Source: Gammaproteobacteria bacterium (GTDB taxonomy: Bacteria > Pseudomonadota > Gammaproteobacteria > Natronospirales > JAIVGZ01). Taken from it: DNA of 64,000 bases. Location: NCBI GenBank assembly GCA_040882865.1, contig JBBEAN010000008.1, positions 556,437 to 620,436 of the forward strand, read 5' to 3'. A program made the translations under genes and the position numbers. The notes beneath the pieces are model-generated. The model was given only the letters and a program-made list of their open reading frames with translations. It did no database searches and was not told the origin of the DNA. Positions 5,439 to 57,735 of this stretch are shown here, piece by piece; the first letter of the stretch is position 1; each line of letters begins with the position of its first letter.

Positions 5439-5777
5439 TTAGTGGCCTTCGTGATCCTTCCGGCCCTTACCCTTGCCTTTGCCTTTGTGCATCTTTTCCA
5501 TCTTCGCGATCTGGTCTTCATTGAGAAGCGCGCGAATCTCGGTGCGGACCTGCTCGTGCGACTTCTTGATTTGCTCACGCGCGTCTGCGGTCCGCTCGTG
5601 ATGCTGCTTCATAAGCGCTTCGACCTGGGCGCGCTGGCTGTCGGTGAGATCCAGCCGCTCGGCCATGCGGTCCATGTGCCGCTCGTGCCTGTCGCCGCCA
5701 TGCTCGCCGGGGTTCGCCCAGGCGCCGCTCGCCAGTGTGAGGCCCAGCGCCGCGGCCGTCAGTAGAGTCATTCTCAT
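5439..5777 (-). CDS. Spy/CpxP-family periplasmic protein (LTxxQ motif)
   Basis: Signal peptide MRMTLLTAAALGLTLASGAWA. LTDSQRAQVEALMKQHHE motif. His/Lys-rich tail. GGAG lies upstream of ATG 5777. Confidence 0.75.
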   Translation of the reverse strand: MRMTLLTAAALGLTLASGAWANPGEHGGDRHERHMDRMAERLDLTDSQRAQVEALMKQHHERTADAREQIKKSHEQVRTEIRALLNEDQIAKMEKMHKGKGKGKGRKDHEGH

Positions 5778-10665: not shown

Positions 10666-11556
10666 ATGCATCTGACAAAAGCACTGGCAGCACTGAGCGC
10701 CGGGTCGCTTCTGTTGATCGGGCACTCGACACTCGCCTACGCACAGGATGATCCGTATACGGACGACACACGCGACGAGCAGTCGACCGAAACCACCACG
10801 CAGGACGACACTTGGTCGAGCGACACCGAGACCACAGCCGATGCCGACGTGGACATGCAGGATGATTCCGATGTCGAGTCCGACTCGACGATGGACACGT
10901 ATGCCCAGAACGAGGATGACGAGTACAGCGCCGAAGTGGATGTCGACTCGAGTTCCGAGTCGGATTCCGACGTGTACGCGCGTACCGAAGATGACGAGTT
11001 CCGTGCCGACGTAGACGTCGATGCGGAAAGCGACACCTATGCTGCGACCCGGGACGACGATGAGTTCCGTGCCGACGTAGACGTCGATGCGGATGCCGAC
11101 AGCGACACCAGCTCGTCGACCTACGCGCAGACCGAAGACGATGGCTTTGACGCCAGCGCCGACGTGAACGCGGATGTCGACAGCAGCGCTTCGCCGGACC
11201 TGCAGGAGCAGGTCGCCCAGATTGACGTCGAAGTGGACGTCGACGCGGCGAAGATCGAGGAGCTCGCGCAGATCCACGTGGAAATGCAGAAAGAGACCCG
11301 CGATCTTGCCGACCAGATGTCGGGCGCCGGTTCGACTGCAGACGCGCAGGAACTTCAGGCGCAGATGGTCGACCGCCAGGTCGAGGTGATTGAACGCCAC
11401 GGTTGGACCCGCGATGAGTACAACGCGGTCGTCGACACCGTGAACGAGAATCCCGACCTCCGCGCGCAGTTCATCGAAAATGTGGTGAACAGCGATACCG
11501 CGGTCGCGCAGACTGAGTCGGAAGACCCGGCTGCCGAGGAAGACACCGACTGGTAA
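10666..11556 (+). CDS. secreted, highly acidic repeat protein with C-terminal DUF4168-like domain
   Basis: GGAGG RBS and signal peptide MHLTKALAALSAGSLLLIGHSTLAYA. About 190 aa are dominated by D/E/T/S with repeated Y-A-x-T-E-D-D-E-F-R-A-D-V-D-V-D-A units. The C-terminus (ELAQIHVEMQKE...WTRDEYNAVVDTVNENPDLRAQF) resembles DUF4168. Confidence 0.7.
   Translation: MHLTKALAALSAGSLLLIGHSTLAYAQDDPYTDDTRDEQSTETTTQDDTWSSDTETTADADVDMQDDSDVESDSTMDTYAQNEDDEYSAEVDVDSSSESDSDVYARTEDDEFRADVDVDAESDTYAATRDDDEFRADVDVDADADSDTSSSTYAQTEDDGFDASADVNADVDSSASPDLQEQVAQIDVEVDVDAAKIEELAQIHVEMQKETRDLADQMSGAGSTADAQELQAQMVDRQVEVIERHGWTRDEYNAVVDTVNENPDLRAQFIENVVNSDTAVAQTESEDPAAEEDTDW
10996..11093 (+). repeat. intragenic tandem duplication (66-nt period) in the acidic protein gene
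   Basis: The 32-nt string GAGTTCCGTGCCGACGTAGACGTCGATGCGGA occurs identically at 10996-11027 and 11062-11093. Confidence 0.85.
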
Positions 11557-21881: not shown

Positions 21882-22349
21882 TTAGAGTGGAAGCGCCAGC
21901 ACGATGGCGTCTTCGCGCTGGCCGCGAGCCGCCGGGTAATAGTTGTTCCGCAAACCGACCTCGACGAACCCGGCGACGCGATACAGATGCAGTGCCGCGT
22001 CGTTCGATGGGCGTACCTCGAGGAACAGGGCCTTGGCGCGGTGGCTCCGCGCCAGCTCAAACACGTGGTCGAGCATCATCCGGCCCAGGCCCGTGCGCTG
22101 CCGCGCCGGTGCCACGCACAGGTTGAGCAGATGTGCCTCACCTGCGCCGACTGACATCACCACATAGCCGGCGACACCGTCGTCGGCCTCGGCGATCCAG
22201 CAGCAGTATCCGATGCGTAGGCAGTCGCGGAAGATTCCCGCGGTCCACGGGTAGGGATAAGCCGCGCGCTCGACTTCCATGACCGCGTCGATGTCGCTGG
22301 TGCGCATCGGCCGCAGTTGCACGGGTGCCGGCTCGCGTTGCGCACTCAT
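21882..22349 (-). CDS. rimI: ribosomal-protein-alanine N-acetyltransferase
   Basis: GNAT core (RQRTGLGRMML) and RimI-like N-terminus (MRTSDIDAVMEVERAAYPYPW). Start ATG 22349 forms an ATGA overlap with the upstream stop. The longer track ORF is an over-extension. Confidence 0.8.
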   Translation of the reverse strand: MSAQREPAPVQLRPMRTSDIDAVMEVERAAYPYPWTAGIFRDCLRIGYCCWIAEADDGVAGYVVMSVGAGEAHLLNLCVAPARQRTGLGRMMLDHVFELARSHRAKALFLEVRPSNDAALHLYRVAGFVEVGLRNNYYPAARGQREDAIVLALPL

Positions 22350-23098
22350 GCGACGGGCTCCGCGACGCTCAGCGCGAGCTTGAGGTCGTCCCACGCGCGG
22401 CGCTTCTGTCCCGGTGATCGCAGCAGGTACGCCGGGTGATACGTTGCGACAAGCGGTGTTTCTCGCGTGCCATACCGATGCACGGTGCCGCGCAGTTTGC
22501 CGATTGGCTGGTCGCTTGCGAGCAGCGTCTGCGCGGCGATGCGGCCCACGACGAGAATGAGTTCGGGTTCCACGAGCGCGATTTGGCGATCCAGGAATGC
22601 ACGGCACGCCGTGAGCTCATCAGACTTCGGGTCGCGGTTGTCGGGCGGCCGGCACTTGAGCGTGTTCGCGATGTACACGCGCTCACGCGGCGCGCCCGCG
22701 GCCGCGAGCATCGCATTGAGGAGTTGCCCGGCGCGACCGACGAACGGCTCGCCTTGGCGATCCTCCTCCGCGCCCGGCGCCTCACCCACAAGCATCCAAC
22801 GCGCGTTGCGATCGCCCGTGCCGAATACGGTTTGCGTGCGGCTTCGGTGGAGGTCGCAGGCGGTGCAGGTGGAGACGGTTTGCTGGAGGGTGTCCCAATC
22901 GAGGGTCGAGGCATCGGCGAGTTCGCGGCGCGAAGGCGCCGCTCCAACAGGGGCTGGTGGTGACTCGGGCACATCGCGGCGCAAAGGCGCCGCTCCTACA
23001 GGTGTCGACTCCGGTAATGGCGCCGCTCCTACAATCGGTGGCCTGACATAGAGCTGAACACCGAGGGCGTCGAGGTAGTGGCGGCGCCGCGCGTCCAC
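22346..23098 (-). CDS. uracil-DNA glycosylase, family 4, with REP-derived N-terminal linker
   Basis: Motif A GEAPGAEED, motif B HPAYLLR, Cys cluster (CTACDL...), N-terminal YLDALGVQLY motif. GTG start. Confidence 0.85.
   Translation of the reverse strand: MDARRRHYLDALGVQLYVRPPIVGAAPLPESTPVGAAPLRRDVPESPPAPVGAAPSRRELADASTLDWDTLQQTVSTCTACDLHRSRTQTVFGTGDRNARWMLVGEAPGAEEDRQGEPFVGRAGQLLNAMLAAAGAPRERVYIANTLKCRPPDNRDPKSDELTACRAFLDRQIALVEPELILVVGRIAAQTLLASDQPIGKLRGTVHRYGTRETPLVATYHPAYLLRSPGQKRRAWDDLKLALSVAEPVA
22922..23036 (+). repeat. REP elements x2.5 (orientation A), in frame inside the UDG gene
   Basis: 22922-22953 TTCGCGGCGCGAAGGCGCCGCTCCAACAGGGG. 22973-23004 ATCGCGGCGCAAAGGCGCCGCTCCTACAGGTG. 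Half copy at 23019-23036 GGCGCCGCTCCTACAATC. The 51-nt period equals 17 codons. Confidence 0.9.
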
Positions 23099-38249: not shown

Positions 38250-38337
38250 ATTCGCGACGCCAAGAGCGTCGCTCCCACCTGAAGCTGCCGAACCTTCTGC
38301 AAGAACAGGTGGGAGCGACGCTCTTGGCGTCGCGATT
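38250..38337. repeat. REP doublet (REPIN-like), tail-to-tail, variant GCGACGC/GCGTCGC
   Basis: 38250-38281 ATTCGCGACGCCAAGAGCGTCGCTCCCACCTG. 38306-38337 CAGGTGGGAGCGACGCTCTTGGCGTCGCGATT. The arms match at 31/32 positions as reverse complements, with a 24-nt spacer. Lies between convergent genes. Confidence 0.9.
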
Positions 38338-38922: not shown

Positions 38923-38955
38923 AAATCGCGGCGCAAAGGCGCCGCTCCAACAGTG
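38923..38955 (+). repeat. REP element, orientation A
   Basis: AAATCGCGGCGCAAAGGCGCCGCTCCAACAGTG. Lies between the apbC stop (38956) and the dcd start (38911). Confidence 0.9.
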
Positions 38956-40112: not shown

Positions 40113-42125
40113 ATGACCCAGCGAACCCGCCGGATCCTGGTCACCAGCGCGCTCCCGTACGCGAATGGCCCGATCCATATCGGCCACCTGCTCGAGTACA
40201 TCCAGACCGACGTCTGGGTCCGATTCCAGCAGGCGCGCGGCCACGAGTGCGTGTACGTGTGCGCGAACGACGCCCACGGAACACCGATCATGCTGCGCGC
40301 GCGCCAGGACGGTGTGACGCCCGAGCAGCTGATCGAGCGCATCCGCGGCGAGCACACGCGCGACTTCGCGGATTTCTTGGTCGACTTCGACAACTTCCAC
40401 ACCACGCACTCGGACGAGAACCGCGAACTCACCGAGCTGTTCTACGCGCGCCTGCGCGATGGCGGCCACATCGTCGAGCGCGAAATCGAGCAGGCCTGGG
40501 ATCCGCAGGAAAAGATGTTCCTGCCCGACCGCTATATCCGCGGCGAGTGCCCGCGCTGCGGCGCCGACGACCAGTACGGTGACTCCTGCGAAATCTGCGG
40601 TGCGACTTACGCACCCGCAGAGCTCAAGAACCCACGCTCGGTCGTGTCCGGCGCGACGCCCGAGACGCGCAAATCGCTGCATTATTTCGTGAAGCTCGCC
40701 GACTTCGAGGCGATGCTCAAGGACTGGACCACCACCGGCGCGCACGTGCAGGTACCCGTCGCGAAAAAACTCGGCGAATGGTTCGCGGACGGGCTGCGCG
40801 ACTGGGACATCTCGCGCGACGCACCCTACTTCGGCTTCCGCATCCCGGGGAGCGACGATAAGTACTTCTACGTCTGGCTCGACGCGCCGATTGGCTACAT
40901 GGCGAGCCTGAAGAACCTCGCCGCAAAACGCGACGGAATCGACTTTGACGCGTTTTGGGATACCGGCAGCGACGCCGAGGTGTACCACTTCATCGGCAAG
41001 GACATCATCTACTTCCACACGCTGTTCTGGCCGGCAATCCTGCACGGTGCCGGCTTCCGCAAGCCGACCGCGGTGCACGCACACGGCTTCCTGACCGTGA
41101 ATGGCCAGAAAATGTCCAAGTCGCGCGGCACGTTCATCACCGCGCGCGCGTACCTTGACCACCTCGACCCCGAGGCACTGCGCTACTACTACGCGGCAAA
41201 GCTCGGCCCCGGCATCGATGACATCGACCTGAACCTCGACGACTTCGTGAACCGCGTGAACGCGGATCTCGTGGGCAAGCTCGTGAACATCGCGAGCCGC
41301 TGCGCGGGCTTCATCACGAAGCGTTTCGACGGAACGCTCGCGGCAGCGCTGCCCGACCCCGCGTTGTTCGAGTCGTTCGCGGCCGAGGCCGAAGCGATCG
41401 CAGAGCGCTACGAGCAGCGCGACTTCGCCGGCGCGATGCGGCAAGTCATGGCGCTCGCGGACCGCGCGAACCAGTACATCGATGAGCACAAGCCATGGGT
41501 GATCGCGAAGGACCCATCGCGCACCGACGAAGTGCAAGCGGTCTGTACGCAGGGCCTGAACCTATACCGGCAACTCATTACGTATCTGGCGCCCGTGCTC
41601 CCGCGCACCGCGCAGCGCAGCGCGGACTTCCTCGGCGTCGACGCGCTGTGCTGGCAGGACGCACAGACGCCGTTGCTCGCCCACACAATCAATCCATTCA
41701 CACCGCTGATCACGCGGATTGACCCCGCACAGGTGGCCAAGATGACCGACACGACCGAGACCTCCTCCGCAGCGGCCGCAGGGCCCACCGACCTCGCGCC
41801 GGAGTGCACCATCGACGACTTCACGAAAGTGGACCTGCGCGTCGCGCGCATCGTGAAGGCGGAGCACGTCGAGGGCGCGGATAAGCTCCTCAAACTCACG
41901 CTTGACCTCGGTGGCGCCACGCGCAACGTGTTCGCGGGCATCAAGTCGGCGTACTCGCCCGAGCAACTCGAAGGCCGCCTCACGGTGATGGTGGCGAACC
42001 TCGCGCCGCGCAAGATGCGCTTCGGACTCTCCGAGGGCATGGTGCTCGCCGCGGGTCCGGGTGGCGAAGACCTGTTCATCCTCTCCCCCGACGATGGCGC
42101 GCAGCCCGGTCAGCGCGTAAAGTGA
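40113..42125 (+). CDS. metG: methionine--tRNA ligase
   Basis: HIGH region [17 protein letters not shown] (QKMSKSRG), zinc knuckles CPRCG / CEICG, and a C-terminal tRNA-binding domain. Confidence 0.95.
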
Positions 42126-42126
42126 A

Positions 42127-42708
42127 GTGGTGAACGAATACGCACTGCTGCTCGTCGGCACAGTGCTCGTCAACAACTTCGTCCTCGTCAAGTTCCTTGG
42201 GCTCTGCCCGTTCATGGGCGTCTCGCGCAAGCTCGAGACTGCGGGCGGCATGGCGCTCGCGACCACTTTCGTGCTCACGCTGTCGTCGGTCGCCGGCTGG
42301 GCGCTGCATAAGTGGCTGCTCGTGCCGCTGGGCCTCGAGTACCTGCGCACCCTCACGTTCATCCTCGCGATTGCCGCGGTCGTGCAGTTCACGGAAATGG
42401 CGGTCAAGCGCACGAGCCCGCTGCTGCATCAGGTGCTCGGTATCTATCTGCCGTTGATCACGACCAACTGCGCGGTGCTCGGCGTCGCATTGTTGAACGT
42501 ACAGGAGGACCACGGCCTGGTGTCGTCGGCGCTGTACGGCTTCGGTGCTGCGATCGGTTTCTCGATGGTGCTGGTCGCATTCGCCGCGATGCGCGAGCGC
42601 ATCGCAGCCGCCGACGTGCCAGTCGCGTTCCAGGGCGCCGCAATCGCGCTCGTGACCGCGGGCATGATGTCGCTCGCATTCATGGGTTTCGCGGGCTTGG
42701 TGCGCTGA
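42127..42708 (+). CDS. rnfA: electron transport complex subunit RnfA/RsxA
   Basis: [26 protein letters not shown], 193 aa, 6 TM helices. Confidence 0.9.
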
Positions 42709-42709
42709 A

Positions 42710-43249
42710 ATGCTGAGCGCAATCGTCGCCATCACCACACTCGCCGCCGTGTTCGGGCTGCTGCTCGGCTTTTCGGCCGTGCGCTTTCGCGTCGATGGCG
42801 ACCCGATCGCCGATCAGGTCGAGGCCCTGCTGCCGCAGACGCAGTGCGGGCAATGCACGTTCCCGGGATGTCGCCCGTATGCGGAAGCGATCGTGCGCGG
42901 CGAAGCCGACATCAATCAATGCCCGCCGGGCGGCGAGGCGACCATCCGCGCGCTCGCCGACTTGCTCGACCGCGAACCAAAGGCCTTGAATCCCGACAAC
43001 GGCGCCGAGAAGCCGCGCGTGCTGGCGCTGATCGACGAGCCGCGGTGCATCGGCTGCACGCTCTGCATCCAGGCGTGCCCCGTCGACGCGATCGTCGGCG
43101 CGCCGAAACAGATGCACACGGTCATCGCCGCCGAGTGCACCGGCTGCGAACTGTGCCTGCCGCCCTGCCCGGTCGACTGCATCGACCTGGTGCCCGCCGA
43201 CGACGGAATCGCTGCGTGGCGGTGGCCGGAGCCCGACCATGGTGCATGA
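42710..43249 (+). CDS. rnfB: electron transport complex subunit RnfB/RsxB
   Basis: N-terminal TM helix, [10 protein letters not shown] cluster, and two 4Fe-4S ferredoxin motifs ([24 protein letters not shown]). Confidence 0.9.
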
Positions 43250-43256
43250 GCCGGGA

Positions 43257-43290
43257 AAATCGCGGCGCAAAGGCGCCGCTCCAACAGGTG
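43257..43290 (+). repeat. REP element, orientation A, intra-operon (rnfB-rnfC spacer)
   Basis: AAATCGCGGCGCAAAGGCGCCGCTCCAACAGGTG. Confidence 0.9.
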
Positions 43291-43295
43291 CCAGG

Positions 43296-44786
43296 ATGCA
43301 CGGCGGGTTGAAGCTTGAGCCGCACAAAGCCGAGTCAACGCGCGAGCCGATTCTGCGCGGCCCGCGTCCGAGCGAGCTCGTACTGCCGCTCGCACAGCAC
43401 ATGGGCGCCGCGGCGAAGGCGCGTGTCGCGGTCGGTGACCACGTCGCGCGCGGCCAGCCGCTTGCCGACGCCGACGGTTACCTGAGCGCGCCAGTGCATG
43501 CCCCTGCCTCAGGCACCGTTGTAGCCATCGAGCCGCGCCGCATCGCGCATCCGTCAGGCCTCGCGACGCCCTGCATCGTGCTCGAGACCGACGCCGCCGA
43601 CCATGACTGGGACGGCCTGCACGCGCACCCACAATGGCGCGACCTCACCCCCGAGCAGGTGCGAACGCTCGTGCGCGATGCCGGCATCGTCGGCCTCGGC
43701 GGCGCCGCGTTTCCGACCCACGTGAAACTCAATCCCGCGCTGACCGTCGACACGCTCGTCCTCAACGGCGCGGAGTGCGAGCCGTACATCAGCTGCGACG
43801 ACCGGCTGATGCGCGAGCGCGCGGCGCAGGTCGTCGCGGGTGCGGAGATCCTGCTGCACGCGCTGCAGGCAAAGCGGTGCGTGATCGCGATTGAGGAAGA
43901 CAAGCCAGAAGCGATCGCGGCCATCAAAACAGGAATCGCGGCGCAAAGGCGCCGCTCCAACACCAGCGACTTCGACCTGGCTTTGGAGGTGGTGCCTGCG
44001 ATTTACCCTCAGGGCGGCGAGCGGCAGTTGATTGCCACGGTGACGGGACGGCGGGTCCCGAGCGGCGGCTTACCGCTGAACGTCGGCGTCGTCTGCCACA
44101 ACGTCGCGACCGCGGCCGCGGTCGCCGCAGCGGTGCTGGACGGCGAGCCGCTCACGCGGCGCGTTGTCACCATGACCGGCGACGCGATGGCAGCACCGCG
44201 CAATGTCGACGCGCTGTACGGCACGCCCGTCTCAGCGCTCATCGCCGCGTGCGGTGGCTACGACGCGCCGGTGGACCGACTTGTAATGGGCGGTCCGATG
44301 ATGGGCTTCGCGCTGCCCGGCGACGACGTACCCGTCGTGAAGGCGATGAATTGCATCTTGGCGGAGTCCGATGCGATCGCGGCGCAAAGGCGCCGCTCCG
44401 TCAAACAGGTTCAGCCCTGCATTCGGTGTACGGCGTGTGAAGACGCGTGCCCGGCCGAGCTCCTGCCGCAGCAGCTGCACTGGTTCGCGCGCGCGCGGGA
44501 TTTCGACCAGGCCCGCGATCACGCGCTGTTCGATTGCATCGAATGCGGCGTCTGCGACGCCGTGTGTCCGAGCGACATACCGCTCGCCGCGCAGTTTCGC
44601 TGGGCGAAGGCAGAGATCCGCGCGCGCGATGACGAACGCAGTCGCGCCGAGCTCGCGAAACACCGCTTCGAGGCGCGCGCGCAGCGCCTCGCTGACGAGA
44701 AGCGCGAGCGCGAAGAACGCTTGAAGAAGAAACAGGACCCCGCCGCCATCGAAGCAGCGCTCGCACGCGTGAAGGCGAGCCGATGA
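43296..44786 (+). CDS. rnfC: electron transport complex subunit RnfC/RsxC
   Basis: GLGGAAFPTHVKL, NGAECEPYISCDDRLM, and two 4Fe-4S motifs (CIRCTACEDACP, CIECGVCDAVCP). ATG 43296 is preferred. The GTG at 43239 would read through the REP. Confidence 0.9.
   Translation: MHGGLKLEPHKAESTREPILRGPRPSELVLPLAQHMGAAAKARVAVGDHVARGQPLADADGYLSAPVHAPASGTVVAIEPRRIAHPSGLATPCIVLETDAADHDWDGLHAHPQWRDLTPEQVRTLVRDAGIVGLGGAAFPTHVKLNPALTVDTLVLNGAECEPYISCDDRLMRERAAQVVAGAEILLHALQAKRCVIAIEEDKPEAIAAIKTGIAAQRRRSNTSDFDLALEVVPAIYPQGGERQLIATVTGRRVPSGGLPLNVGVVCHNVATAAAVAAAVLDGEPLTRRVVTMTGDAMAAPRNVDALYGTPVSALIAACGGYDAPVDRLVMGGPMMGFALPGDDVPVVKAMNCILAESDAIAAQRRRSVKQVQPCIRCTACEDACPAELLPQQLHWFARARDFDQARDHALFDCIECGVCDAVCPSDIPLAAQFRWAKAEIRARDDERSRAELAKHRFEARAQRLADEKREREERLKKKQDPAAIEAALARVKASR
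43933..43964 (+). repeat. REP element, orientation A, in frame inside rnfC
   Basis: GAATCGCGGCGCAAAGGCGCCGCTCCAACACC, translated as (G)IAAQRRRSNT. Confidence 0.9.
44375..44410 (+). repeat. REP element, orientation A, in frame inside rnfC
   Basis: GATCGCGGCGCAAAGGCGCCGCTCCGTCAAACAGGT, translated as AIAAQRRRSVKQV. Confidence 0.9.
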
Positions 44787-45640
44787 ACGACGTGCAGGCC
44801 CTCATGACGAAGGTACTGGTCGCGCTGATTCCGGCCGGCGCAATCCACGTCTGGCTGTTCGGCCCCGGCCTGCTGATCAACTGCACGATTGCCGTCGCCG
44901 CAGCACTCGCGGCAGAAGCCTTGATGCTCAAGCTGCGCGGACGCCCGCTCGTCCCCGCGTTGCTCGACTTGAGCGCGCCCGTCACTGCGGTCCTGCTCGC
45001 GTTTGCGCTGCCACCACTCGTGCCTTGGTGGATTCCGGTCGTGGGGACGCTGTTCGCCATCGTCGTCGCGAAGCAACTTTACGGCGGCATCGGCTTCAAC
45101 CTGTTCAACCCCGCGATGGCGGGTTACGTCGTCTTGTTGATTTCGTTTCCAATCGAGATGACACGCTGGCCGGGGCCGTTCGATGGCGTCACCGCGGCGA
45201 CCCCGCTCGATCAAGTCAACGAGGTCGCGACCATTGCGGGCGGCTGGGAATGGCTGTCGCTTGCGGTGCTGGCGGGCGGGCTTTGGCTCCTGTCCCAGCG
45301 CGTGATTCGATGGCCGATCCCGGTTGCGGTGCTCGGCAGCCTCACGGTCATCGCGACCGTGTTCTGGCTCCTCGACCCAGGTCGCTTTGCCTCACCGGCG
45401 TTCCATCTCGCGGGCGGTGCGACGATGCTGTGCGCGTTCTTCATCGCGACGGACCCGGTCACCGCCGCGACGACGCCACGCGGCCGCATTGTCTACGGCG
45501 TCGGTATCGGCACGCTGATCTGGGTACTGCGTAACTTCAGTGTGTATCCCGATGGCGTCGCGTTCGCCGTCCTGCTGATGAACATGGCGGCACCGGCGCT
45601 TGACCACTTCCTCAGACCGCGGGGCGCGGATGCGCGCTGA
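44783..45640 (+). CDS. rnfD: electron transport complex subunit RnfD/RsxD
   Basis: FNPAMAGYVVLLISFP and the FMN attachment region FFIATDPVTAATTPRGR. Shorter (285 aa) than enteric homologues as I recall them, mainly in a periplasmic loop. Confidence 0.85.
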   Translation: MNDVQALMTKVLVALIPAGAIHVWLFGPGLLINCTIAVAAALAAEALMLKLRGRPLVPALLDLSAPVTAVLLAFALPPLVPWWIPVVGTLFAIVVAKQLYGGIGFNLFNPAMAGYVVLLISFPIEMTRWPGPFDGVTAATPLDQVNEVATIAGGWEWLSLAVLAGGLWLLSQRVIRWPIPVAVLGSLTVIATVFWLLDPGRFASPAFHLAGGATMLCAFFIATDPVTAATTPRGRIVYGVGIGTLIWVLRNFSVYPDGVAFAVLLMNMAAPALDHFLRPRGADAR

Positions 45641-46250
45641 CGTTCGCAACGCGCTCGTCGCCGCCACGGTGCTCGCTGCATTCGCACTGGCGGGGACGGC
45701 GCTCGTCACGACCGCGGAGCACTCGACTCGAGCGCGCATCGCGGACAATGAGCGACAGGCGTTGCTGGAATCGCTCGCGCTCATCGTGGATCCTGCACGC
45801 TACGACAATGATCCGCTGGCCGACACAATTCAGCTCGCCGACGTGCGGCTCGGCGATGGTCCAATCACGGTGTTCCGTGCGCGTCGCGCCGACGAACCGG
45901 TCGCAGCCGTTTTCGCCGTGACCGCGCCGGATGGCTACGCCGGGCCCATCCGCATCCTCGTCGCCGTTAACGTAGACGGCACGGTCTCCGGCGTGCGCGT
46001 GATCGCGCACCGCGAGACGCCCGGGCTCGGCGATCCGATCGACGCGTCACGCTCTGACTGGATCCACACCTTCGCCGGGCGCTCACTCGGCGACCCGCCG
46101 CGCGCGCGCTGGACCGTGCGTAAGGACGGCGGCGCATTCGACCAATTTACCGGCGCGACAATCACCCCGCGCACGGTCGTGCACGCCGTCCGCCGCGCGC
46201 TAGAATTCTTCGAGGAGAATCAGGAGGCGCTCTTTGCAACAAGCAACTGA
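45630..46250 (+). CDS. rnfG: electron transport complex subunit RnfG/RsxG
   Basis: N-terminal TM helix, HRETPGLGD, and the FMN-binding [15 protein letters not shown] 45630 overlaps the rnfD stop. Confidence 0.85.
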
Positions 46251-46905
46251 AGGTCTCTGGCGCAACAATCCGGCGCTCGTGCAGCTGCTTGGGCTGTGTC
46301 CGCTGCTCGCGGTTACCGGCACCGCGGTCAACGGGCTCGGTCTCGGGCTCGCGACGCTGTTCGTGCTCGTCGGTTCGAATCTCGTCGTGTCGCTTATCCG
46401 CGGCGCGCTGAGACCCGAAGTGCGGATTCCAATTTTCGTGCTCGTGATTGCGGCCTTGGTCACGACCGTCGAGCTCACGATGAACGCGTTCTTCCACGAG
46501 CTGTACACGACGCTCGGAATCTTCATTCCGCTGATCGTCACGAATTGCGCAATCATCGCGCGTGCAGAGACGTTCGCGTCACGCAACGGCCCGTTACGGT
46601 CGGTGCTCGACGGCCTGTGGATGGGCAGCGGCTTCGCACTCGTGCTCGTGACGCTCGGCGCGGTGCGAGAAATCGTCGGTCACGGCACGCTGTTCGCGGG
46701 CGCCGAACATCTGTTCGGACCCGCCGCCGCCGATCTCGAGCTTCACTGGACGGCGTACCGCGGCTTCCTGCTCGCCGCGCTGCCGCCGGGCGCATTCTTC
46801 GGGCTCGGGCTCCTGATTGCAGCGAAGAACGCGATCGATGCAAGACGGCCCGCGCGAGCTCCGGTGCGGACTCGCGTCACCGCCTCGGACGCAGCGGCCC
46901 TCTGA
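46234..46905 (+). CDS. rnfE: electron transport complex subunit RnfE/RsxE
   Basis: [35 protein letters not shown]. Confidence 0.9.
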
Positions 46906-48025: not shown

Positions 48026-48361
48026 ATGACGAAGTCCCGTAACTACACGCTGGCGCTCGCCGTCGGCACCGCCCTGGCCGCCGCGCCCGCAGCGGCCGCC
48101 GCCAACCCGTTCGGCCTCTCCGACCTCGGCGCCGGTTACATGCTCGGCGCGGCAGCAGCGGGCGACCCGGCGCCGGCAGCGAAAGACGCCGAAGGCAAAT
48201 GCGGCGAGGACAAGGCCAAGAAGGACGCCGAGGGCAAGTGCGGTGAAGGCAAGTGCGGTGAGGACAAGGACAAGGCCGAGGCGAAGGATGGCGAGGGCAA
48301 GTGCGGTGAGGAGAAAGACAAGGCCAAGACGAAAGATGGCGAGGGTAAGTGCGGGGCCTGA
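48026..48361 (+). CDS. secreted Cys-repeat RiPP precursor (five EGKCG motifs; HvfA/oxazolin-like metallophore precursor)
   Basis: Signal peptide MTKSRNYTLALAVGTALAAAPAAAAA. After it comes NPFGLSDLGAGYML, then a K/E/D-rich tail with EGKCG x5 (Cys codons at 48200, 48239, 48254, 48302, 48350), ending EGKCGA-stop. Directly followed by DUF692 and DUF2063 genes. Confidence 0.8.
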   Translation: MTKSRNYTLALAVGTALAAAPAAAAANPFGLSDLGAGYMLGAAAAGDPAPAAKDAEGKCGEDKAKKDAEGKCGEGKCGEDKDKAEAKDGEGKCGEEKDKAKTKDGEGKCGA

Positions 48362-49158
48362 ACGGCACCGGCCTTGGCCTGCGCCGGCCGTTGATCGAGC
48401 CCTTGCTCGAACAGCGGCCGGCGCAACTTTCGTTTCTGGAAGTCGCACCCGAAAACTGGCTCGGTATCGGCGGCCGACTGGGCCGGCAGCTGCGCGCGCT
48501 GTCAGAGCGTTACCCGCTCGCGAGCCACGGCCTCTCGCTGTCGCTCGGGGGTCCCGGCCCGCTCGATGAGGCCTTCGTGCTCGAGCTCAAACGGTTTTTC
48601 GACGAATACGGCATCACGACGTGCAGCGAGCACCTGTCCTACTGCAGCGACGATGGCCAGCTTTATGACCTCCTTCCGATTCCCTTCACCGAGGAAGCCG
48701 TCCACTGGGTCGCCGCGCGCATTCGCCGCGTCGAAGCCCTGCTAGAACGCCCGCTCGCCATCGAGAACGTGTCGTACTACGCAGCGCCTGGCGCCGAGAT
48801 GCGCGAGATCGAATTCGTGAACGCGGTCCTCGAGGAAGCGGATTGCCGACTGCTGCTCGACGTGAACAACGTGCTCGTCAATTCGGTCAACCACGCGTAC
48901 GACCCGGTCGAGTTCATCCACGCTTTGCCCGCGGACCGCGTCGAGTACTTGCACATGGCCGGGCACACCATCGAGGCCGAAGACCTGCGCATCGATACAC
49001 ATGGCAGCGACGTGCCGGACGAGGTGTGGCGATTGCTCGCCGTCGCGTACGCACACTGCGGGCCACTGCCGACGCTGCTCGAGCGCGACTTCAACATCCC
49101 TCCGCTCGACACGCTGCTCGCAGAAGTCGACCGCATCGTCGAAGCACAGCGCGCATGA
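48349..49158 (+). CDS. DUF692 / MNIO family peptide maturase (MbnB-HvfB-BufB like)
   Basis: Motif series SHGLSLSLGG, SEHLSYC, AIENVSYY, LLLDVNN, YLHMAGH, IDTHG (TIM-barrel metal-ligand pattern of DUF692). GTG 48349 overlaps the precursor by 13 nt. Confidence 0.85.
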   Translation: MRGLNGTGLGLRRPLIEPLLEQRPAQLSFLEVAPENWLGIGGRLGRQLRALSERYPLASHGLSLSLGGPGPLDEAFVLELKRFFDEYGITTCSEHLSYCSDDGQLYDLLPIPFTEEAVHWVAARIRRVEALLERPLAIENVSYYAAPGAEMREIEFVNAVLEEADCRLLLDVNNVLVNSVNHAYDPVEFIHALPADRVEYLHMAGHTIEAEDLRIDTHGSDVPDEVWRLLAVAYAHCGPLPTLLERDFNIPPLDTLLAEVDRIVEAQRA

Positions 49159-49871
49159 GTCTGCGCGCCGACCAACTCGAATTCGCCGCGCACTTGCGCG
49201 ACCCCGACGGACACCCGGCCCCGCCGGGCCTCGAGCCACGCCGCGTCGCCGTGTACCGCGGCCTGCTGTTCAAGAACGTGCTCAGCTTCATGCAGAACGG
49301 TTTTCCGGTCATCCGCAAGACGCTCGGCGACGACGCGTTCGCGACGCTCGTGCGCACATGGTTCGCGCAACACCGCGCGACGACGCCGATTTTTCCGCGC
49401 ATGCCGGGCGAGCTCATCGCATGGCTGGCCGATACACCGCGCGCCGCCGCGGGTGCGCCGCCGTGGCTCACAGAGCTTGCGCACTACGAATGGATCGAAC
49501 TGGAACTCCAACTGGATCCGGCGGAAATCGACGTCGACGGCGTGGACGCCGACGGCGATTTGCGCATGGGGGTGCCGGTGTTATCGCCGCTCGCGCGCGT
49601 CCTCGCGTACGATTGGCCGGTCCACCGGATCGGACCGGATTACCGTCCCGAGACGCCGGAACCGACCACCCTGCTCGTGTACCGAGACCGCAGTGACGGC
49701 GTGCGCTTCATGGAGACCAACGCGATGACGCACGCCCTGTTGGCGCTGTTGCGGGACAACGAGACCGCGACCGGTGAGACGCTGCTGCGCGGGCTCGCGG
49801 TCCGTGATGCGGCGCTGTCTCTGCTCGAGTCGCTGCGTGAGCGCGACATCATCGCCGGGGCACGGTCATGA
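49155..49871 (+). CDS. DUF2063 family partner protein (HvfC/BufC-like)
   Basis: N-terminus MSLRADQLEFAAHLRDP...RVAVYRGLLFKNV... is typical of DUF2063. ATGA overlaps on both sides. Confidence 0.8.
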   Translation: MSLRADQLEFAAHLRDPDGHPAPPGLEPRRVAVYRGLLFKNVLSFMQNGFPVIRKTLGDDAFATLVRTWFAQHRATTPIFPRMPGELIAWLADTPRAAAGAPPWLTELAHYEWIELELQLDPAEIDVDGVDADGDLRMGVPVLSPLARVLAYDWPVHRIGPDYRPETPEPTTLLVYRDRSDGVRFMETNAMTHALLALLRDNETATGETLLRGLAVRDAALSLLESLRERDIIAGARS

Positions 49872-51932: not shown

Positions 51933-52013
51933 ATCGCGGCGCGAAGGCGCCGGCCTATTCGCGGCGCAAAGGCGCCGTTTATTCGCGGCGCAAAGGCGCC
52001 GCTCCTACAGTTG
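51931..52013 (+). repeat. three tandem REP units (orientation A), 24-26-nt period
   Basis: GAATCGCGGCGCGAAGGCGCCGGCCT / ATTCGCGGCGCAAAGGCGCCGTTT / ATTCGCGGCGCAAAGGCGCCGCTCCTACAGTTG. Only the last unit keeps the CTCCTACAG tail. The array begins inside the HIT stop codon (TGA 51930-32). Confidence 0.9.
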
Positions 52014-54620: not shown

Positions 54621-56375
54621 TCACAAATCCGTCAGCGTCCCCGCGAACGCTTCCGCCGAGAAGGCCACCGTCTCCGACAGCGTCGGGTGGGGGTGGATCA
54701 CAAGGCCGATGTCGTGCGCATCCGCGCCCATCTCGATCGCGAGCACCGCTTCTGAAATGAGATCGCCCGCGTTCGGGCCGACGATGCCCGCGCCGATCAC
54801 GCGTCCGGTCTTTTCATCGAACAGCAACTTGCTGAACCCGTCCTGCGCGTCGAGCGCGAGCGCACGACCGCTCGCCGCCCACGGGAAGCGGCCCTTGCCG
54901 ACCTTGATGCCTTTCTGTTTGGCTTCGGTCTCGGTCATGCCGCACCACGCGACCTCCGGGTCGGTATATGCGACCGACGGAATCACGCGCGCGTCGAACG
55001 CCGATTTTTGGCCGGCGGTGACTTCCGCCGCGACTTTCGCTTCGTGCGTCGCCTTGTGCGCGAGCATCGGATTGCCGGCGACGTCGCCGATCGCGAAGAT
55101 GTTCGGCTGGTTCGTGCGCATCTGTTCGTCCACGGGGATGAAGCCGCGGTCGTCGACCGTGACGCCAGCCGCGTCCGCGCCAAGGCCGCGCCCGTTCGGC
55201 TTGCGTCCGATGGCAACGAGTACACGGTCGAAGGTCTGAGATTCCGGCGCGTCCTTGCCGTCGAACGACACCGCGATGCCGCCTTTTTTCGCCTCGAGTT
55301 TCGCGACTTTCGTCGAGAGCCAGATGGCTTCGCACTTCGACTCGAGGCGCTTCTGGAGCACCTTCACGAGGTCGCGGTCGGTTCCCGGCATCAGTCCATC
55401 GGAAAGCTCCACGACACTGACTTTCGTACCCAGCGCCGCGTACACCGTCGCCATTTCGAGCCCGATGATGCCGCCGCCGACCACGAGCAGGCTCGCCGGC
55501 ACATCCTCGAGCGCGAGCGCGCCGGTGGAGTCGATGATGCGCGGGTCTTCGGGCGCACCCGGGAGCTTCACGACGGACGAACCGGCCGCGATGATCGCGT
55601 GCTCGAAATGGATGAGTTCGTTCTTGTCGCCCTCGACCGCGAGGTGATTCGCGTCCTTGAAGCGGCCGACGCCGGTCACGACCGATACCTTGCGTTTTTT
55701 CGCGAGCGCCTTGAGCCCGCCCGTGAGCTGACCGACCACGCCGTCCTTGAACCCGCGCAGCTTTTCGAGGTCGAGCTTCGGCTCACCGAATGAAACGCCG
55801 TGCGTGCCGAGCGTCTCGACTTCCGCCATCACGCGCGCGACGTGCAGCAATGCTTTCGACGGGATGCAGCCCACGTTCAGGCATACGCCGCCGAGCGTCG
55901 GGTAGCGCTCGACCAATATGACTTTCTTGCCGAGGTCGGCTGCGCGGAACGCCGCGGTATAGCCGCCGGGGCCGGCGCCGAGGACCAGCACATCGCACGC
56001 CAACGTGGTGTCCTTACGGGTGGGAGCGGCGCTCTGCGCCGCGATTGGCTCGGATTTCTCCGGCGCCGGTTTTTCCTCGCGGCGCGAAGGCGCCGCTCCT
56101 GCATCCAGGTCACCTGTAGGAGCGGCACCTTCGTGCCGCGATCCGTCAGAAGCTTCGAGCTCGGCAATCTCGCTGCCCTGCGACACCTTGTCGCCGGCCT
56201 TGACCAGGAGCTTCGTGACTTTACCGGCGTGGGTCGATGGCACGTCCATCGCAGCCTTGTCGGTCTCGATGGTGATCAGGCCCTGCTCGGCCTCGACCGA
56301 TTCGCCTTCGGCGACCAGCACCTCGATGACCTCGACGTCCGAGAAATTCCCGATGTCGGGAACGAGAATTTTCAT
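54621..56375 (-). CDS. lpdA: dihydrolipoyl dehydrogenase (E3) with N-terminal lipoyl domain
   Basis: Lipoyl domain (ITIETDKAAMDVPS), FAD site LVLGAGPGGY, redox disulfide CLNVGCIPSK, and HPHPTLSE. 584 aa. Confidence 0.9.
   Translation of the reverse strand: MKILVPDIGNFSDVEVIEVLVAEGESVEAEQGLITIETDKAAMDVPSTHAGKVTKLLVKAGDKVSQGSEIAELEASDGSRHEGAAPTGDLDAGAAPSRREEKPAPEKSEPIAAQSAAPTRKDTTLACDVLVLGAGPGGYTAAFRAADLGKKVILVERYPTLGGVCLNVGCIPSKALLHVARVMAEVETLGTHGVSFGEPKLDLEKLRGFKDGVVGQLTGGLKALAKKRKVSVVTGVGRFKDANHLAVEGDKNELIHFEHAIIAAGSSVVKLPGAPEDPRIIDSTGALALEDVPASLLVVGGGIIGLEMATVYAALGTKVSVVELSDGLMPGTDRDLVKVLQKRLESKCEAIWLSTKVAKLEAKKGGIAVSFDGKDAPESQTFDRVLVAIGRKPNGRGLGADAAGVTVDDRGFIPVDEQMRTNQPNIFAIGDVAGNPMLAHKATHEAKVAAEVTAGQKSAFDARVIPSVAYTDPEVAWCGMTETEAKQKGIKVGKGRFPWAASGRALALDAQDGFSKLLFDEKTGRVIGAGIVGPNAGDLISEAVLAIEMGADAHDIGLVIHPHPTLSETVAFSAEAFAGTLTDL
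56016..56046 (-). repeat. REP element, orientation B, 3-nt loop, in frame inside lpdA
   Basis: ACGGGTGGGAGCGGCGCTCTGCGCCGCGATT. Sense-strand translation IAAQSAAPTR. Confidence 0.9.
56075..56144. repeat. REP doublet (tail-to-tail, no spacer) in frame inside lpdA
   Basis: 56075-56110 CCTCGCGGCGCGAAGGCGCCGCTCCTGCATCCAGGT (orientation A). 56111-56144 CACCTGTAGGAGCGGCACCTTCGTGCCGCGATCC (orientation B, stem variant GCGGCAC/GTGCCGC). Sense-strand translation GSRHEGAAPTGDLDAGAAPSRRE. Confidence 0.9.
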
Positions 56376-56454: not shown

Positions 56455-57735
56455 TCATAGCACCAACCCTTCGACGTCGTGCAAGACTTTCGCCAAGTGC
56501 GTCGTGAACCGCGCAGCGGCCGCGCCGTCGATCACGCGATGGTCGTACGACAGCGACAGCGGCAGCATGAGCCGCGGCTTGAAGTCGTCGCCGTCCCACA
56601 CGGGCTTCATCTGCGACTTCGACACGCCGAGGATCGCGACTTCGGGCGCGTTCACGATCGGCGTGAACGCGGTGCCGCCGATACCGCCGAGGCTCGACAC
56701 CGAGAAGGTACCGCCCTGCATGTCCTTCGCTTTGAGTTTCTTGTCGCGCGCCTTGCCGCTGATCTCGCCGAGTTCCTTCGCGATGTCGAAGACGTTCTTC
56801 TTGTCCGCGTCGCGGATGACCGGTACGACGAGACCCTCGGGGGTGTCGACCGCGAAGCCGATGTGGAAGTACTGCTTCACGATGAGCTGGTCACCGTCGA
56901 GCGACGAATTGAAGCGCGGGAATTCCTTCAGCGTCAGCGCACACGCCTTGATGATGAACGCGAGCGGCGTGAGCTTCGCGCCGAGCTTCTCCGCGTCGGC
57001 CTTCAGCGACTGGCGCACCGTTTCCATATCGGTGATGTCCGCTTCGTCGTGCTGCGTGACGTGCGGAATCGTCGCCCACGCGCGCTGCAGGTGCGGCCCG
57101 GCGATTTTCTGGATGCGCGTGAGCAGCTCGGCCTCGACCGGCCCCCACTGCGAGAAATCGATGCGCGGCGCGGGCTCGAACGACGGGCCGCCCATACCGC
57201 CGCCCTGCATCACGCCCTTCACGAACGCTTTCACGTCGTCGTGGGTGATACGGCCTTTTTTTGCGCTGCCGTTGACGCGCGTGAGGTCGACGCCGAGTTC
57301 GCGCGCAAGTTTGCGGACCGATGGTGACGCGTGGGGTGGCGTGCCGTCAGCGCGGCGGCTGGGCGCCGGTTCCTGTTCGCGGTGCGAAGGCGCCGCTCCT
57401 ACAGGTGGCTCCGAAGGCGCGCCTTTTTCTTCGCGGCGCGAAGGTGCAGGTTCCTTTTCGCGGCGCGAAGGCGCCGCTCCTACATCTTGCTTCTCGGTGG
57501 CTTCGATCTCCGCGATCGGCGTGCCTTCGGAGACCTTGTCGCCGGCCTTCACGAGCAGCTTCGTGATCTTGCCCGCGTGCGTCGACGGCACGTCCATCGC
57601 GGCCTTGTCGGTTTCGATGGTGATGAGGCCGTCCTCGACCGCGACGGTGTCGCCCTCGGCGACCATGACTTCGATGACTTCGACGCCCTCGAAGTTACCG
57701 ATATCGGGGACCTTGATCTGGACCGTGTCAGACAT
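56455..57735 (-). CDS. aceF: dihydrolipoamide acetyltransferase (E2), single lipoyl domain
   Basis: Lipoyl domain (ITIETDKAAMDVPS), E3-binding domain (SPSVRKLARELGVDLTRVNGSAKKGRI), and catalytic SLSYDHRVIDGA. Confidence 0.9.
   Translation of the reverse strand: MSDTVQIKVPDIGNFEGVEVIEVMVAEGDTVAVEDGLITIETDKAAMDVPSTHAGKITKLLVKAGDKVSEGTPIAEIEATEKQDVGAAPSRREKEPAPSRREEKGAPSEPPVGAAPSHREQEPAPSRRADGTPPHASPSVRKLARELGVDLTRVNGSAKKGRITHDDVKAFVKGVMQGGGMGGPSFEPAPRIDFSQWGPVEAELLTRIQKIAGPHLQRAWATIPHVTQHDEADITDMETVRQSLKADAEKLGAKLTPLAFIIKACALTLKEFPRFNSSLDGDQLIVKQYFHIGFAVDTPEGLVVPVIRDADKKNVFDIAKELGEISGKARDKKLKAKDMQGGTFSVSSLGGIGGTAFTPIVNAPEVAILGVSKSQMKPVWDGDDFKPRLMLPLSLSYDHRVIDGAAAARFTTHLAKVLHDVEGLVL
57345..57486 (+). 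repeat. four to five REP-derived units (orientation A), in frame inside aceF
   Basis: 57375-57408 GTTCGCGGTGCGAAGGCGCCGCTCCTACAGGTGG. 57429-57450 CTTCGCGGCGCGAAGGTGCAGG. 57456-57486 TTTCGCGGCGCGAAGGCGCCGCTCCTACATC. A degenerate unit lies at 57345-57373. Confidence 0.85.

Follow-up and report, generated by a model that had tools for sequence, protein, structure and literature searches.

The repetitive extragenic palindromic (REP) elements of Pseudomonas are thought to be mobilized by tyrosine transposases, the REP-associated tyrosine transposases (RAYTs). Such REP/REPIN-RAYT systems have been described in Pseudomonas and Stenotrophomonas (Bertels and Rainey 2011, PMC3116915; Nunvar et al. 2013, PMC3686654), and the REP classes found next to orthologous RAYT genes differ between related strains (PMC3686654). 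Di Nocera et al. (2013, BMC Genomics 14:522; PMC3733652) cataloged intragenic REPs of the GTAG and CGTC types in several species, including GTAG REPs present as two copies in one gene and in the linkers of E2 acyltransferases, and argued for the neutrality of intragenic REPs from their location in flexible linkers and loops. Here we describe two REPs (sites 1 and 2) that lie in frame within rnfC (rsxC) in a 64-kb stretch of a gammaproteobacterial metagenome-assembled genome (MAG) (contig JBBEAN010000008.1, positions 556,437 to 620,436; the whole stretch is hereafter the window). The gene is a new host for a known kind of in-frame REP event, and the main addition is the turnover of REPs at a fixed coding position across multiple species. 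In our assessment, the rnfC REPs are probably resident GTAG-type elements that sit in, and partly replace, a permissive loop and a permissive linker of the protein, and are passengers rather than protein adaptations.

Palindromic repeats within genes are also known from Rickettsia, whose palindromic elements (RPEs) are tolerated at surface positions and are often common to the orthologs of several species. In-frame RPEs were described by Ogata et al. (2000, as cited in PMC3733652 and PMC3184786), and in R. felis 85 of 728 RPEs lie inside open reading frames (ORFs) (PMC1166351). The rnfC REPs resemble them as palindromic repeats in frame in genes for functional proteins, a likeness in behavior only: RPEs are Rickettsia-specific, measure about 100-150 bp, encode 30-50 residues and are not of the GTAG/RAYT type, whereas the rnfC unit is 24-35 nt long (8-12 residues) and, unlike RPEs, differs in sequence between species at the same site. 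With the REPs of Di Nocera et al., the rnfC copies share their nature as short palindromes from a GTAG-tagged, high-copy, mostly intergenic family, found in frame in known genes and doubled in one gene. They depart from that set in that RnfC/RsxC is absent from its host-protein table (PMC3733652), that no case of one intragenic site with different REP variants across related species is reported there, and that neither rnfC copy has a clean GTAG, the tail being GTTG at site 1 and interrupted at site 2. The Pseudomonas REPs have the same GT[A/G]GGAGC-stem-loop-stem-GCGA(T) arrangement as those of the window (e.g., GTAGGAGCGAGGCTTGCCCGCGA of P. fluorescens) and likewise form inverted doublets, and the strain-specific REP classes noted above (PMC3686654) parallel the lineage-specific variants at rnfC site 1. 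However, the REPs of Pseudomonas and Stenotrophomonas are described as extragenic, and no RAYT gene was found for the window family in the window or the fetched loci. BRE and other small repeats that lie in or extend protein genes (reviewed in Delihas 2011, PMC3184786) are comparable to REP-encoded tails that we find on RnfB in three relatives (L081, L085 and L086; see below), but they belong to other families, with terminal inverted repeats or terminator-like structures, in other taxa.

The host gene and its two REPs are as follows.

43296..44786, + strand: rnfC/rsxC coding sequence, 496 aa (Pfam, 8AHX_C match, AlphaFold2, Foldseek).
43935..43962, + strand: site 1 REP (exact 24-mer 43935-43958 plus AACA; hairpin core 43938-43955), encoding I214-N222 (IAAQRRRSN).
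44376..44410, + strand: site 2 REP (exact 24-mer 44376-44399, then GTCA and the tail AACAGGT; hairpin core 44379-44396), encoding I361-Q371 plus 2 bases of the V372 codon (IAAQRRRSVKQ).

Both segments belong to the genome's GTAG-type REP family and are unexceptional within it. They contain an identical 24-mer in the same orientation and frame, read as IAAQRRRS at both sites. A preliminary description of this DNA had proposed two in-frame REPs here, with coordinates that are right to within 2 nt (site 1 begins at 43935 and site 2 at 44376). Codon 214 (ATC) begins at 43935, with IAAQRRRSNT spanning 43935-43964; codon 360 (GCG) begins at 44373 and codon 361 at 44376, with AIAAQRRRSVKQV spanning 44373-44411. 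The 24-mer, ATCGCGGCGCAAAGGCGCCGCTCC, is the REP core and occurs in six exact copies in the window, including one in the spacer between rnfB and rnfC that is identical to those at sites 1 and 2. Its hairpin has a 7-bp GC stem (GCGGCGC/GCGCCGC) and a 4-nt AAAG loop, with a folding energy of -16.4 to -17.6 kcal/mol and fold z values of -5.0 (site 1) and -2.1 (site 2). Sixteen matches to the 18-nt hairpin core occur in the window at up to 2 mismatches, against 0.10 expected, a count reached by 0 of 100 shuffles, and a direct-repeat search placed 13 REP copies in a single family (D1), the window also containing sister subfamilies and inverted dimers.

A scan of the window for the hairpin followed by GCTCC-N-AC indicated about 28 REP units per 64 kb in three close subfamilies, about 20 of them outside confirmed coding sequence. 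The subfamilies have stems of GCGGCGC or GCGACGC, loops of 3-5 nt and a tail of CGCTCC[T/C/A]AC (GT[A/G/T]GGAGCG on the opposite strand), and the family form, [A/T]TCGCG-hairpin-CGCTCC[T/A/C]AC, is the reverse complement of GT[A/T/G]GGAGCG-hairpin-CGCGA[A/T]. Most window copies end in the GTAG-type tail (consensus end CGCTCC[T/C]AC, i.e., GT[A/G]GGAGCG on the other strand). The site 1 copy carries GTTG instead, a variant also present in the intergenic copies at 22925, 38925 and 43259, and the site 2 copy has 4 extra nucleotides (GTCA) between CGCTCC and the AACAGGT tail. Inverted doublets (REPIN-like) occur at 38254/38309, 56079/56116 and 56384/56421, and tandem clusters at 22925-23040 and 51936-52008. 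The intergenic cluster at 51936-52008 holds three tandem hairpin cores 24-25 nt apart, the first two without the CTCC-N-AC tail, and shows that REPs accumulate beside existing REPs in this genome. A reading of the element as a DNA uptake sequence was dropped, since a hairpin that carries a GTAG-type tail and occurs in spacers as inverted doublets behaves as a REP.

Within rnfC the element remains recognizable by its codons. The gene has only two AGG codons, both of them REP loops, and AGG accounts for 3 of the 280 arginine codons in 11 neighboring genes; the AGG and CAA codons of the REPs are thus foreign to host usage, which suggests that the REP DNA has not been brought into line with it. 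It is scarcely credible that the two segments are chance palindromes or products of misassembly at a repeat. The source is a MAG, and GC-rich genes hold many short palindromes; nevertheless, exact 24-nt identity is seen six times in the window (against an expectation of 0.1 for the 18-mer at 2 mismatches), alignments to homologs run unbroken through the reading frame and both flanks, independent assemblies of relatives carry REPs at the same site, and the repeat is probably shorter than typical assembly k-mers.

The encoded protein has the domain order RnfC_N, Complex1_51K (flavin mononucleotide [FMN] domain), SLBB and a ferredoxin domain with two [4Fe-4S] motifs, recovered with Pfam at E = 1.8e-31, 3.8e-52 and 1.3e-9, plus Fer4 families. 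The RnfC of A. vinelandii (8AHX_C) is matched at E = 3e-115, and the window protein is identical to P0001, a gammaproteobacterial MAG protein annotated as RsxC by NCBI. Columns invariant in an alignment of 120 homologs are all present in the window, namely C375, C378, C381, C385, P386, C414, C417, C420, C424, G133-P140, Y237, P238 and G240. Both CxxCxxCxxxCP cluster motifs are thus intact, as are the cofactor motifs GLGGAxFP and YPxGGE. The first cluster motif lies close to site 2.

44418..44453, + strand: first [4Fe-4S] motif, C375-x2-C378-x2-C381-x3-C385-P, 8 residues after the RRR tract of site 2 and invariant in the 120 homologs.

Both REPs lie in poorly conserved segments of variable length, as had been anticipated from a comparison with E. 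coli RsxC, whose quoted sequence strings proved exact against the MG1655 protein. BLASTP against MG1655 RsxC opens gaps of 8 residues at site 1 and 4 at site 2, and the comparison with 8AHX_C gives gaps of 8 and 5. Among the 120 homologs, the segment A209-P234 has a modal length of 18 residues (81 of 120) against 24 in the window, and the segment C353-C375 a modal length of 17 (96 of 120) against 21, which is the joint maximum; a second, independent set of 102 loci shows the same length pattern at both segments. The REP-derived DNA amounts to 28 nt at site 1 and 35 nt at site 2, and the net gain over the mode is 6 and 4 residues, respectively.

An AlphaFold2 model of the window RnfC has high overall confidence (predicted local distance difference test [pLDDT] 94.5; predicted template modeling score [pTM] 0.90) and superposes on 8AHX_C and 8RBQ_C with TM scores of 0.88 and 0.92. 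At site 1, residues 214-220 are modeled as the last two turns of the helix 204-220 and residues 221-226 as a loop, followed by the strand 227-233 and then YPQGGE. In a REP-free homolog of modal length (P0010), the equivalent helix (212-224) and loop are shorter by 4 residues and by 1 residue, respectively. Rossmann-like domains in general have their helix-to-strand connections at the sheet edge that lies opposite the cofactor site; by analogy, the site 1 loop of the Rossmann-like FMN domain would lie on the sheet edge opposite the YPQGGE cofactor motif. Site 2 falls in the linker between the last SLBB strand (353-358) and Cys375 of the iron-sulfur (Fe-S) domain. This stretch is a 17-residue coil in P0010, and the REP residues of the window are modeled as a short helix with the lowest local confidence of the model (mean pLDDT of 78 in a 10-residue block). 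Placement in surface loops, as earlier supposed, is well supported for the monomer model, with site 1 predicted at a helix end and loop and site 2 in an interdomain linker.

To follow the two sites through related genomes, we compared the DNA of the eight closest homologs, designated L081 (86% amino acid identity), L082 (75%), L083 (65%), L084, L085 and L086 (64%) and L207 and L208 (about 60%), with site states taken from codon alignments and REP scans. Beyond the identical P0001, the protein search gave no relative closer than 84% identity, a scan of contigs found only sequences of at most 56% identity, and a metagenome scan with a degenerate YPQGGERQL pattern returned, among the matches listed, unrelated and mostly gut RnfC proteins and no additional close relative. 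Site 1 is occupied by a REP throughout a clade of 64-86% amino acid identity, and the insertions thus do not appear to be strain-specific. In L081 it holds TCGCCAATCACAGATTGGCTCCCAC, a perfect 7-bp hairpin with a REP tail that is identical over 25 nt to the copy at that genome's own rnfB/rnfC junction. In L086 it holds TCGCGACGCATTGCGTCGCTCCTACG, which matches a copy at L086 5705 exactly over 26 nt. L085, with 88% identity to L086, has a 45-nt piece between the retained left part, TTCGCGACGCATTG, and the GGTG right flank of an L086-type REP; this piece contains a long-loop REP of the family seen at L086 12873 and adds 11 codons in frame, so that site 1 of L085 is a REP nested into a REP. L082 has only ATCGCGGCGCAAAG, the left arm and loop of the window variant, and L083 has GCGAG-CCATCGC-CTCGC at the same codons as L081, with 6 of 7 pairs kept, two of them through compensatory changes. 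No REP was found at site 1 of L084, L207 or L208 in the codon alignments and REP scans.

The window, L081, L082 and L083 share the exact nucleotide at which the element begins, within the codon of a conserved hydrophobic helix residue; its start in L085 and L086 lies 8 nt further upstream. The segments with intact REPs are only 1 residue above the modal length in L081 and exactly modal in L086, where the left REP arm encodes VRDAL, matching the family consensus LREAL. An intact REP with little or no gain in length implies that the native 7-residue loop was largely replaced rather than added to. The codons of L081 that are orthologous to site 2 read TCGGCGCAGAGAGCCGCTCCG, in which the loss of one base is offset further downstream and no hairpin can form. 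This decayed REP places the origin of site 2 before the split of the window and L081 lineages, the copy in L081 being in decay. Hence, the notion of simple insertions captures the net excess in length and misses that native loop DNA has been largely replaced and that the sites are old in the clade. REP-like elements had also been tentatively assigned to site 2 of L082, L083 and L085; this claim was dropped, the presence of a hairpin alone being uninformative in a test on 102 genes.

In a neighbor-joining tree with 300 bootstraps, the REP-bearing lineages form one clade (support 0.92), within which the branching is (((window, L081) 1.0, L082) 1.0, L083) 0.94. At four-fold degenerate sites, the window has an identity of 0.64 to L081 and of 0.42-0.44 to L084, L085 and L086, and L085 and L086 have an identity of 0.82 to each other. 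For a 24-mer that was present in the common ancestor of the window and L081 and evolved without constraint, the chance of still matching the consensus would be about 0.8^24 (~0.005). Both window 24-mers are perfect, and the L081 and L086 copies are identical to other copies in their own genomes. Perfect copies despite the divergence of the window and L081 point either to periodic overwriting or homogenization from other copies or to fresh insertion at a hot spot. The nearest possible donor in the window and in L081 is the copy at the rnfB-rnfC junction, which lies at a distance of 441-676 nt and belongs to the same variant. REP types at site 1 are distributed in disagreement with the tree, with the window and L082 sharing one type and L081 and L083 another, which implies at least two swaps or recombination between lineages. 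The persistence of REP positions is not peculiar to rnfC, as suggested by an orthologous REP with lineage-specific stems in the dcd-mrp spacer of the window (38925-38951) and L084 (5692-5716): the stems differ and are each internally complementary (GCGGCGC/GCGCCGC in the window and GCGGCC/GGCCGC in L084), and synonymous sites are near saturation between the two genomes. These elements thus appear to be old as sites and young as sequence.

A different history, in which each lineage received recent and independent REP insertions at a mutational hot spot instead of descendants or overwrites of one old insertion, is a possibility that we regard as rather doubtful. It would explain why each lineage's copy perfectly matches the current variant of its own genome, why the REP start of L085 and L086 lies 8 nt upstream of that in the other four and why the REP type departs from the RnfC tree (window with L082, L081 with L083), and L085 appears to have acquired a fresh REP inside the older one since its split from L086. 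However, all of the REP-bearing lineages belong to one clade and the three nearest outgroups lack a REP, four lineages have exactly the same left boundary and frame, and the half element of L082 together with the decayed site 2 of L081 implies inheritance followed by decay. Further, the intergenic REP with diverged stems that is shared with the more distant L084 indicates that REP positions can be long-lived.

We favor a scenario in which REP copies landed in the DNA coding for the helix-to-strand loop of the FMN domain and for the SLBB-ferredoxin coil, with mobilization by a RAYT tyrosine transposase assumed by analogy with the REPs of Pseudomonas. The copies would persist because the GC-rich REP is free of stops in five of the six frames (the consensus has a stop codon in one only, the TAG read from GTAG) and because selection retains only those events that preserve both frame and fold. 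Site 1 would have been colonized once or twice in the ancestor of the clade and since then overwritten or homogenized by the current variant of each genome, possibly from the neighboring copy at the rnfB-rnfC junction, and in this way the native 7-residue loop would have been displaced and not just lengthened. More tentatively, site 1 might be a long-lived intragenic landing pad for REPs, at which loop DNA captured in the clade ancestor was repeatedly overwritten in frame at the same left boundary by each genome's current RAYT-propagated variant, the nesting in L085 included, and at which the hairpin or some of the peptides may be under selection.

The peptides themselves differ between lineages at both sites, namely IAAQRRRSN in the window and IAAQST, LANHRLAPT and VRDALRRSY, among others, in the relatives at site 1, and AVSAQRAAPAK at site 2 of L081. 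The Arg-rich patch accordingly appears to be incidental, a by-product of reading the hairpin in frame 0. The suggestion that it adds a patch next to the Fe-S domain holds as far as position goes, the RRR tract preceding the first Fe-S cysteine by 8 residues; conservation does not extend to the peptide, and nothing points to a role. We therefore consider it very improbable that IAAQRRRS has been exapted at the protein level as a useful basic patch, for instance in the docking of a partner or the tuning of the Fe-S domain. The presence of two identical Arg-rich peptides in one protein, one of them ending 8 residues before the first cluster cysteine, would fit such a role, and A[N/S]HRLAPT has been kept between L081 and L083 despite 50% nucleotide change, which suggests that REP-coded peptides can become constrained. 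Against this, no relative has the window peptide, site 2 of the 86%-identical ortholog reads AVSAQRAAPAK, the RRR tract follows directly from reading the hairpin in frame 0, the codons AGG and CAA, which are rare, are unadapted to host usage, and pLDDT is lowest at site 2.

Some observations weigh against the passenger interpretation. The peptide shared by L081 and L083 persists despite differences at 12 of 24 nt that are mostly synonymous and include two compensatory stem pairs, which may indicate a degree of constraint on peptide or hairpin in this lineage. Selection instead of turnover could also explain the perfect hairpins of four lineages, and the clade is sampled by only seven sequences. 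Finally, no RAYT gene was found in the window or the fetched loci, by a weak test that used tblastn with an E. coli RAYT query (best E in the window, 0.7).

The same REP family also shapes the junction between rnfB and rnfC. The rnfABCDGE operon occupies the ORFs 42127-42708, 42710-43249, 43296-44786, 44783-45640, 45600-46250 and 46234-46905, in an order that matches L081, L086 and L207 (where the Pfam labels are Rnf-Nqr, FeS/Fer4, RnfC, NQR2_RnfD_RnfE, FMN_bind and Rnf-Nqr).

42710..43249, + strand: rnfB coding sequence (ORF list; TGA stop at 43247-43249; C-terminal WRWPEP motif, then DHGA).
43259..43290, + strand: spacer REP (exact 24-mer 43259-43282 plus the tail AACAGGTG) in the 46-nt rnfB-rnfC spacer, with a fold of -17.0 kcal/mol.
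L081 690-760, L085 about 185-215 and L086 1965-1997: REP-encoded RnfB tails at the rnfB/rnfC junction.

The spacer REP begins 12 nt past the rnfB stop. It is noncoding if rnfC starts at 43296, as in the public annotation, and is read as SRRKGAAPT if the start is the ATG at 43239. This alternative in-frame ATG has a GGAG 7 nt upstream, overlaps the end of rnfB and would add a 19-residue N-terminal extension to RnfC. The rnfB stop and the rnfC start share an ATGA in L082, L084 and L086, an overlap that the REP has disrupted in the window. A junction REP is common to the window, L081, L085 and L086, and in the latter three it is translated as a 10- to 20-residue C-terminal tail of RnfB past WRWPEP; the L081 tail contains two extra partial REP units that give a repeated GANxKKV. 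At the other end of the operon in L086, the REP at 5705-5727, identical to site 1 of its rnfC, lies in the last rnfE codons before the overlapping nth start.

With three REPs on the same strand, it is conceivable that the hairpins are selected as nucleic acid elements that tune the expression of rnfB and rnfC, through protection against 3' exonucleases, ribosome pausing at a domain boundary or uncoupling of rnfB and rnfC translation; we judge this unlikely. The hairpins are on the sense strand with energies of -16 to -17.6 kcal/mol, that of site 1 is intact in the window, L081, L085 and L086 and keeps 6 of 7 pairs with two compensatory changes in L083, site 2 falls exactly at the SLBB/ferredoxin domain boundary, and the spacer REP, 12 nt past the rnfB stop, takes the place of the ATGA overlap of L082, L084 and L086. 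However, each genome has dispersed copies identical to its hairpins, and turnover of the family thus accounts for hairpin integrity; the site 2 hairpin is lost in L081, and L082 has only half an element at site 1. Moreover, perfect stems of at least 7 bp are common (5-8 per gene), with no enrichment at either site among 102 rnfC loci, and the genomes of L084, L207 and L208 in the same group have a REP-free rnfC. A search of Rfam over 42000-46000 at a permissive E-value likewise gave no matches.

Other genes of the window also carry REPs in frame. In lpdA (54621-56375, minus strand), three lie in the lipoyl-domain linker (residues 74-127; window 56020-56139), and in aceF (56455-57735, minus strand), at least two lie in the lipoyl-domain linker (residues 78-133; window 57379-57483). 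The linkers from the lipoyl to the catalytic or E3-binding domains of these proteins are built largely from REPs, with peptides of the types GAAPSRRE and SRHEGAAPT, and L086 and L207 carry REPs in the same lpdA/aceF linkers. The frame read in rnfC had been described as distinct from those used in aceF, lpdA and a gene of the uracil-DNA glycosylase (UDG) family, which proved incorrect in that the lpdA linker reads a sister-subfamily REP in the same frame. In the UDG-family ORF (22346-23098, minus strand), the tandem REP triplet at 22925-23040 falls in the first ~60 codons, upstream of the Pfam UDG domain (residues 92-240). Its true start may lie downstream of the triplet, in which case these REPs would be noncoding.

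Two further regions of the window contain repeats of other kinds. A small ORF at 48026-48361, within the region 48026-49871, encodes repeated EGKCGE motifs and is followed by an ORF at 48349-49158, whose syntenic counterparts in L086 and L207 are labeled by Pfam as MbnB_TglH_ChrH and then HvfC_N/HvfC_C. We take the region 48026-49871 to resemble an hvfABC-type cluster for a cysteine-modified metal-binding protein. At 10912-11182, direct repeats of about 49 nt (family D4) encode acidic, D/E-rich units.

RnfC, as a subunit of a respiratory redox enzyme, joins the proteins that tolerate in-frame REP DNA. The element takes up a helix-to-strand loop and an interdomain linker, replacing native residues more than adding to them, and across species it is the DNA element that is renewed and not the encoded peptide. 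For annotation, this means that IAAQRRRS-, GAAPSRRE- and SRRKGAAPT-like stretches in this group of Gammaproteobacteria are REP read-through rather than motifs, and that REPs blur gene boundaries, with the start of rnfC and the C termini of RnfB both affected. How REPs are replaced is a question that is hard to address in intergenic DNA because no reading frame anchors the alignments there; variants at a fixed coding position could separate in situ replacement from reinsertion at a hot spot. If site 1 is indeed a landing pad, it would be a natural record of REP replacement in a protein with an essential fold and a tractable assay of REP movement.

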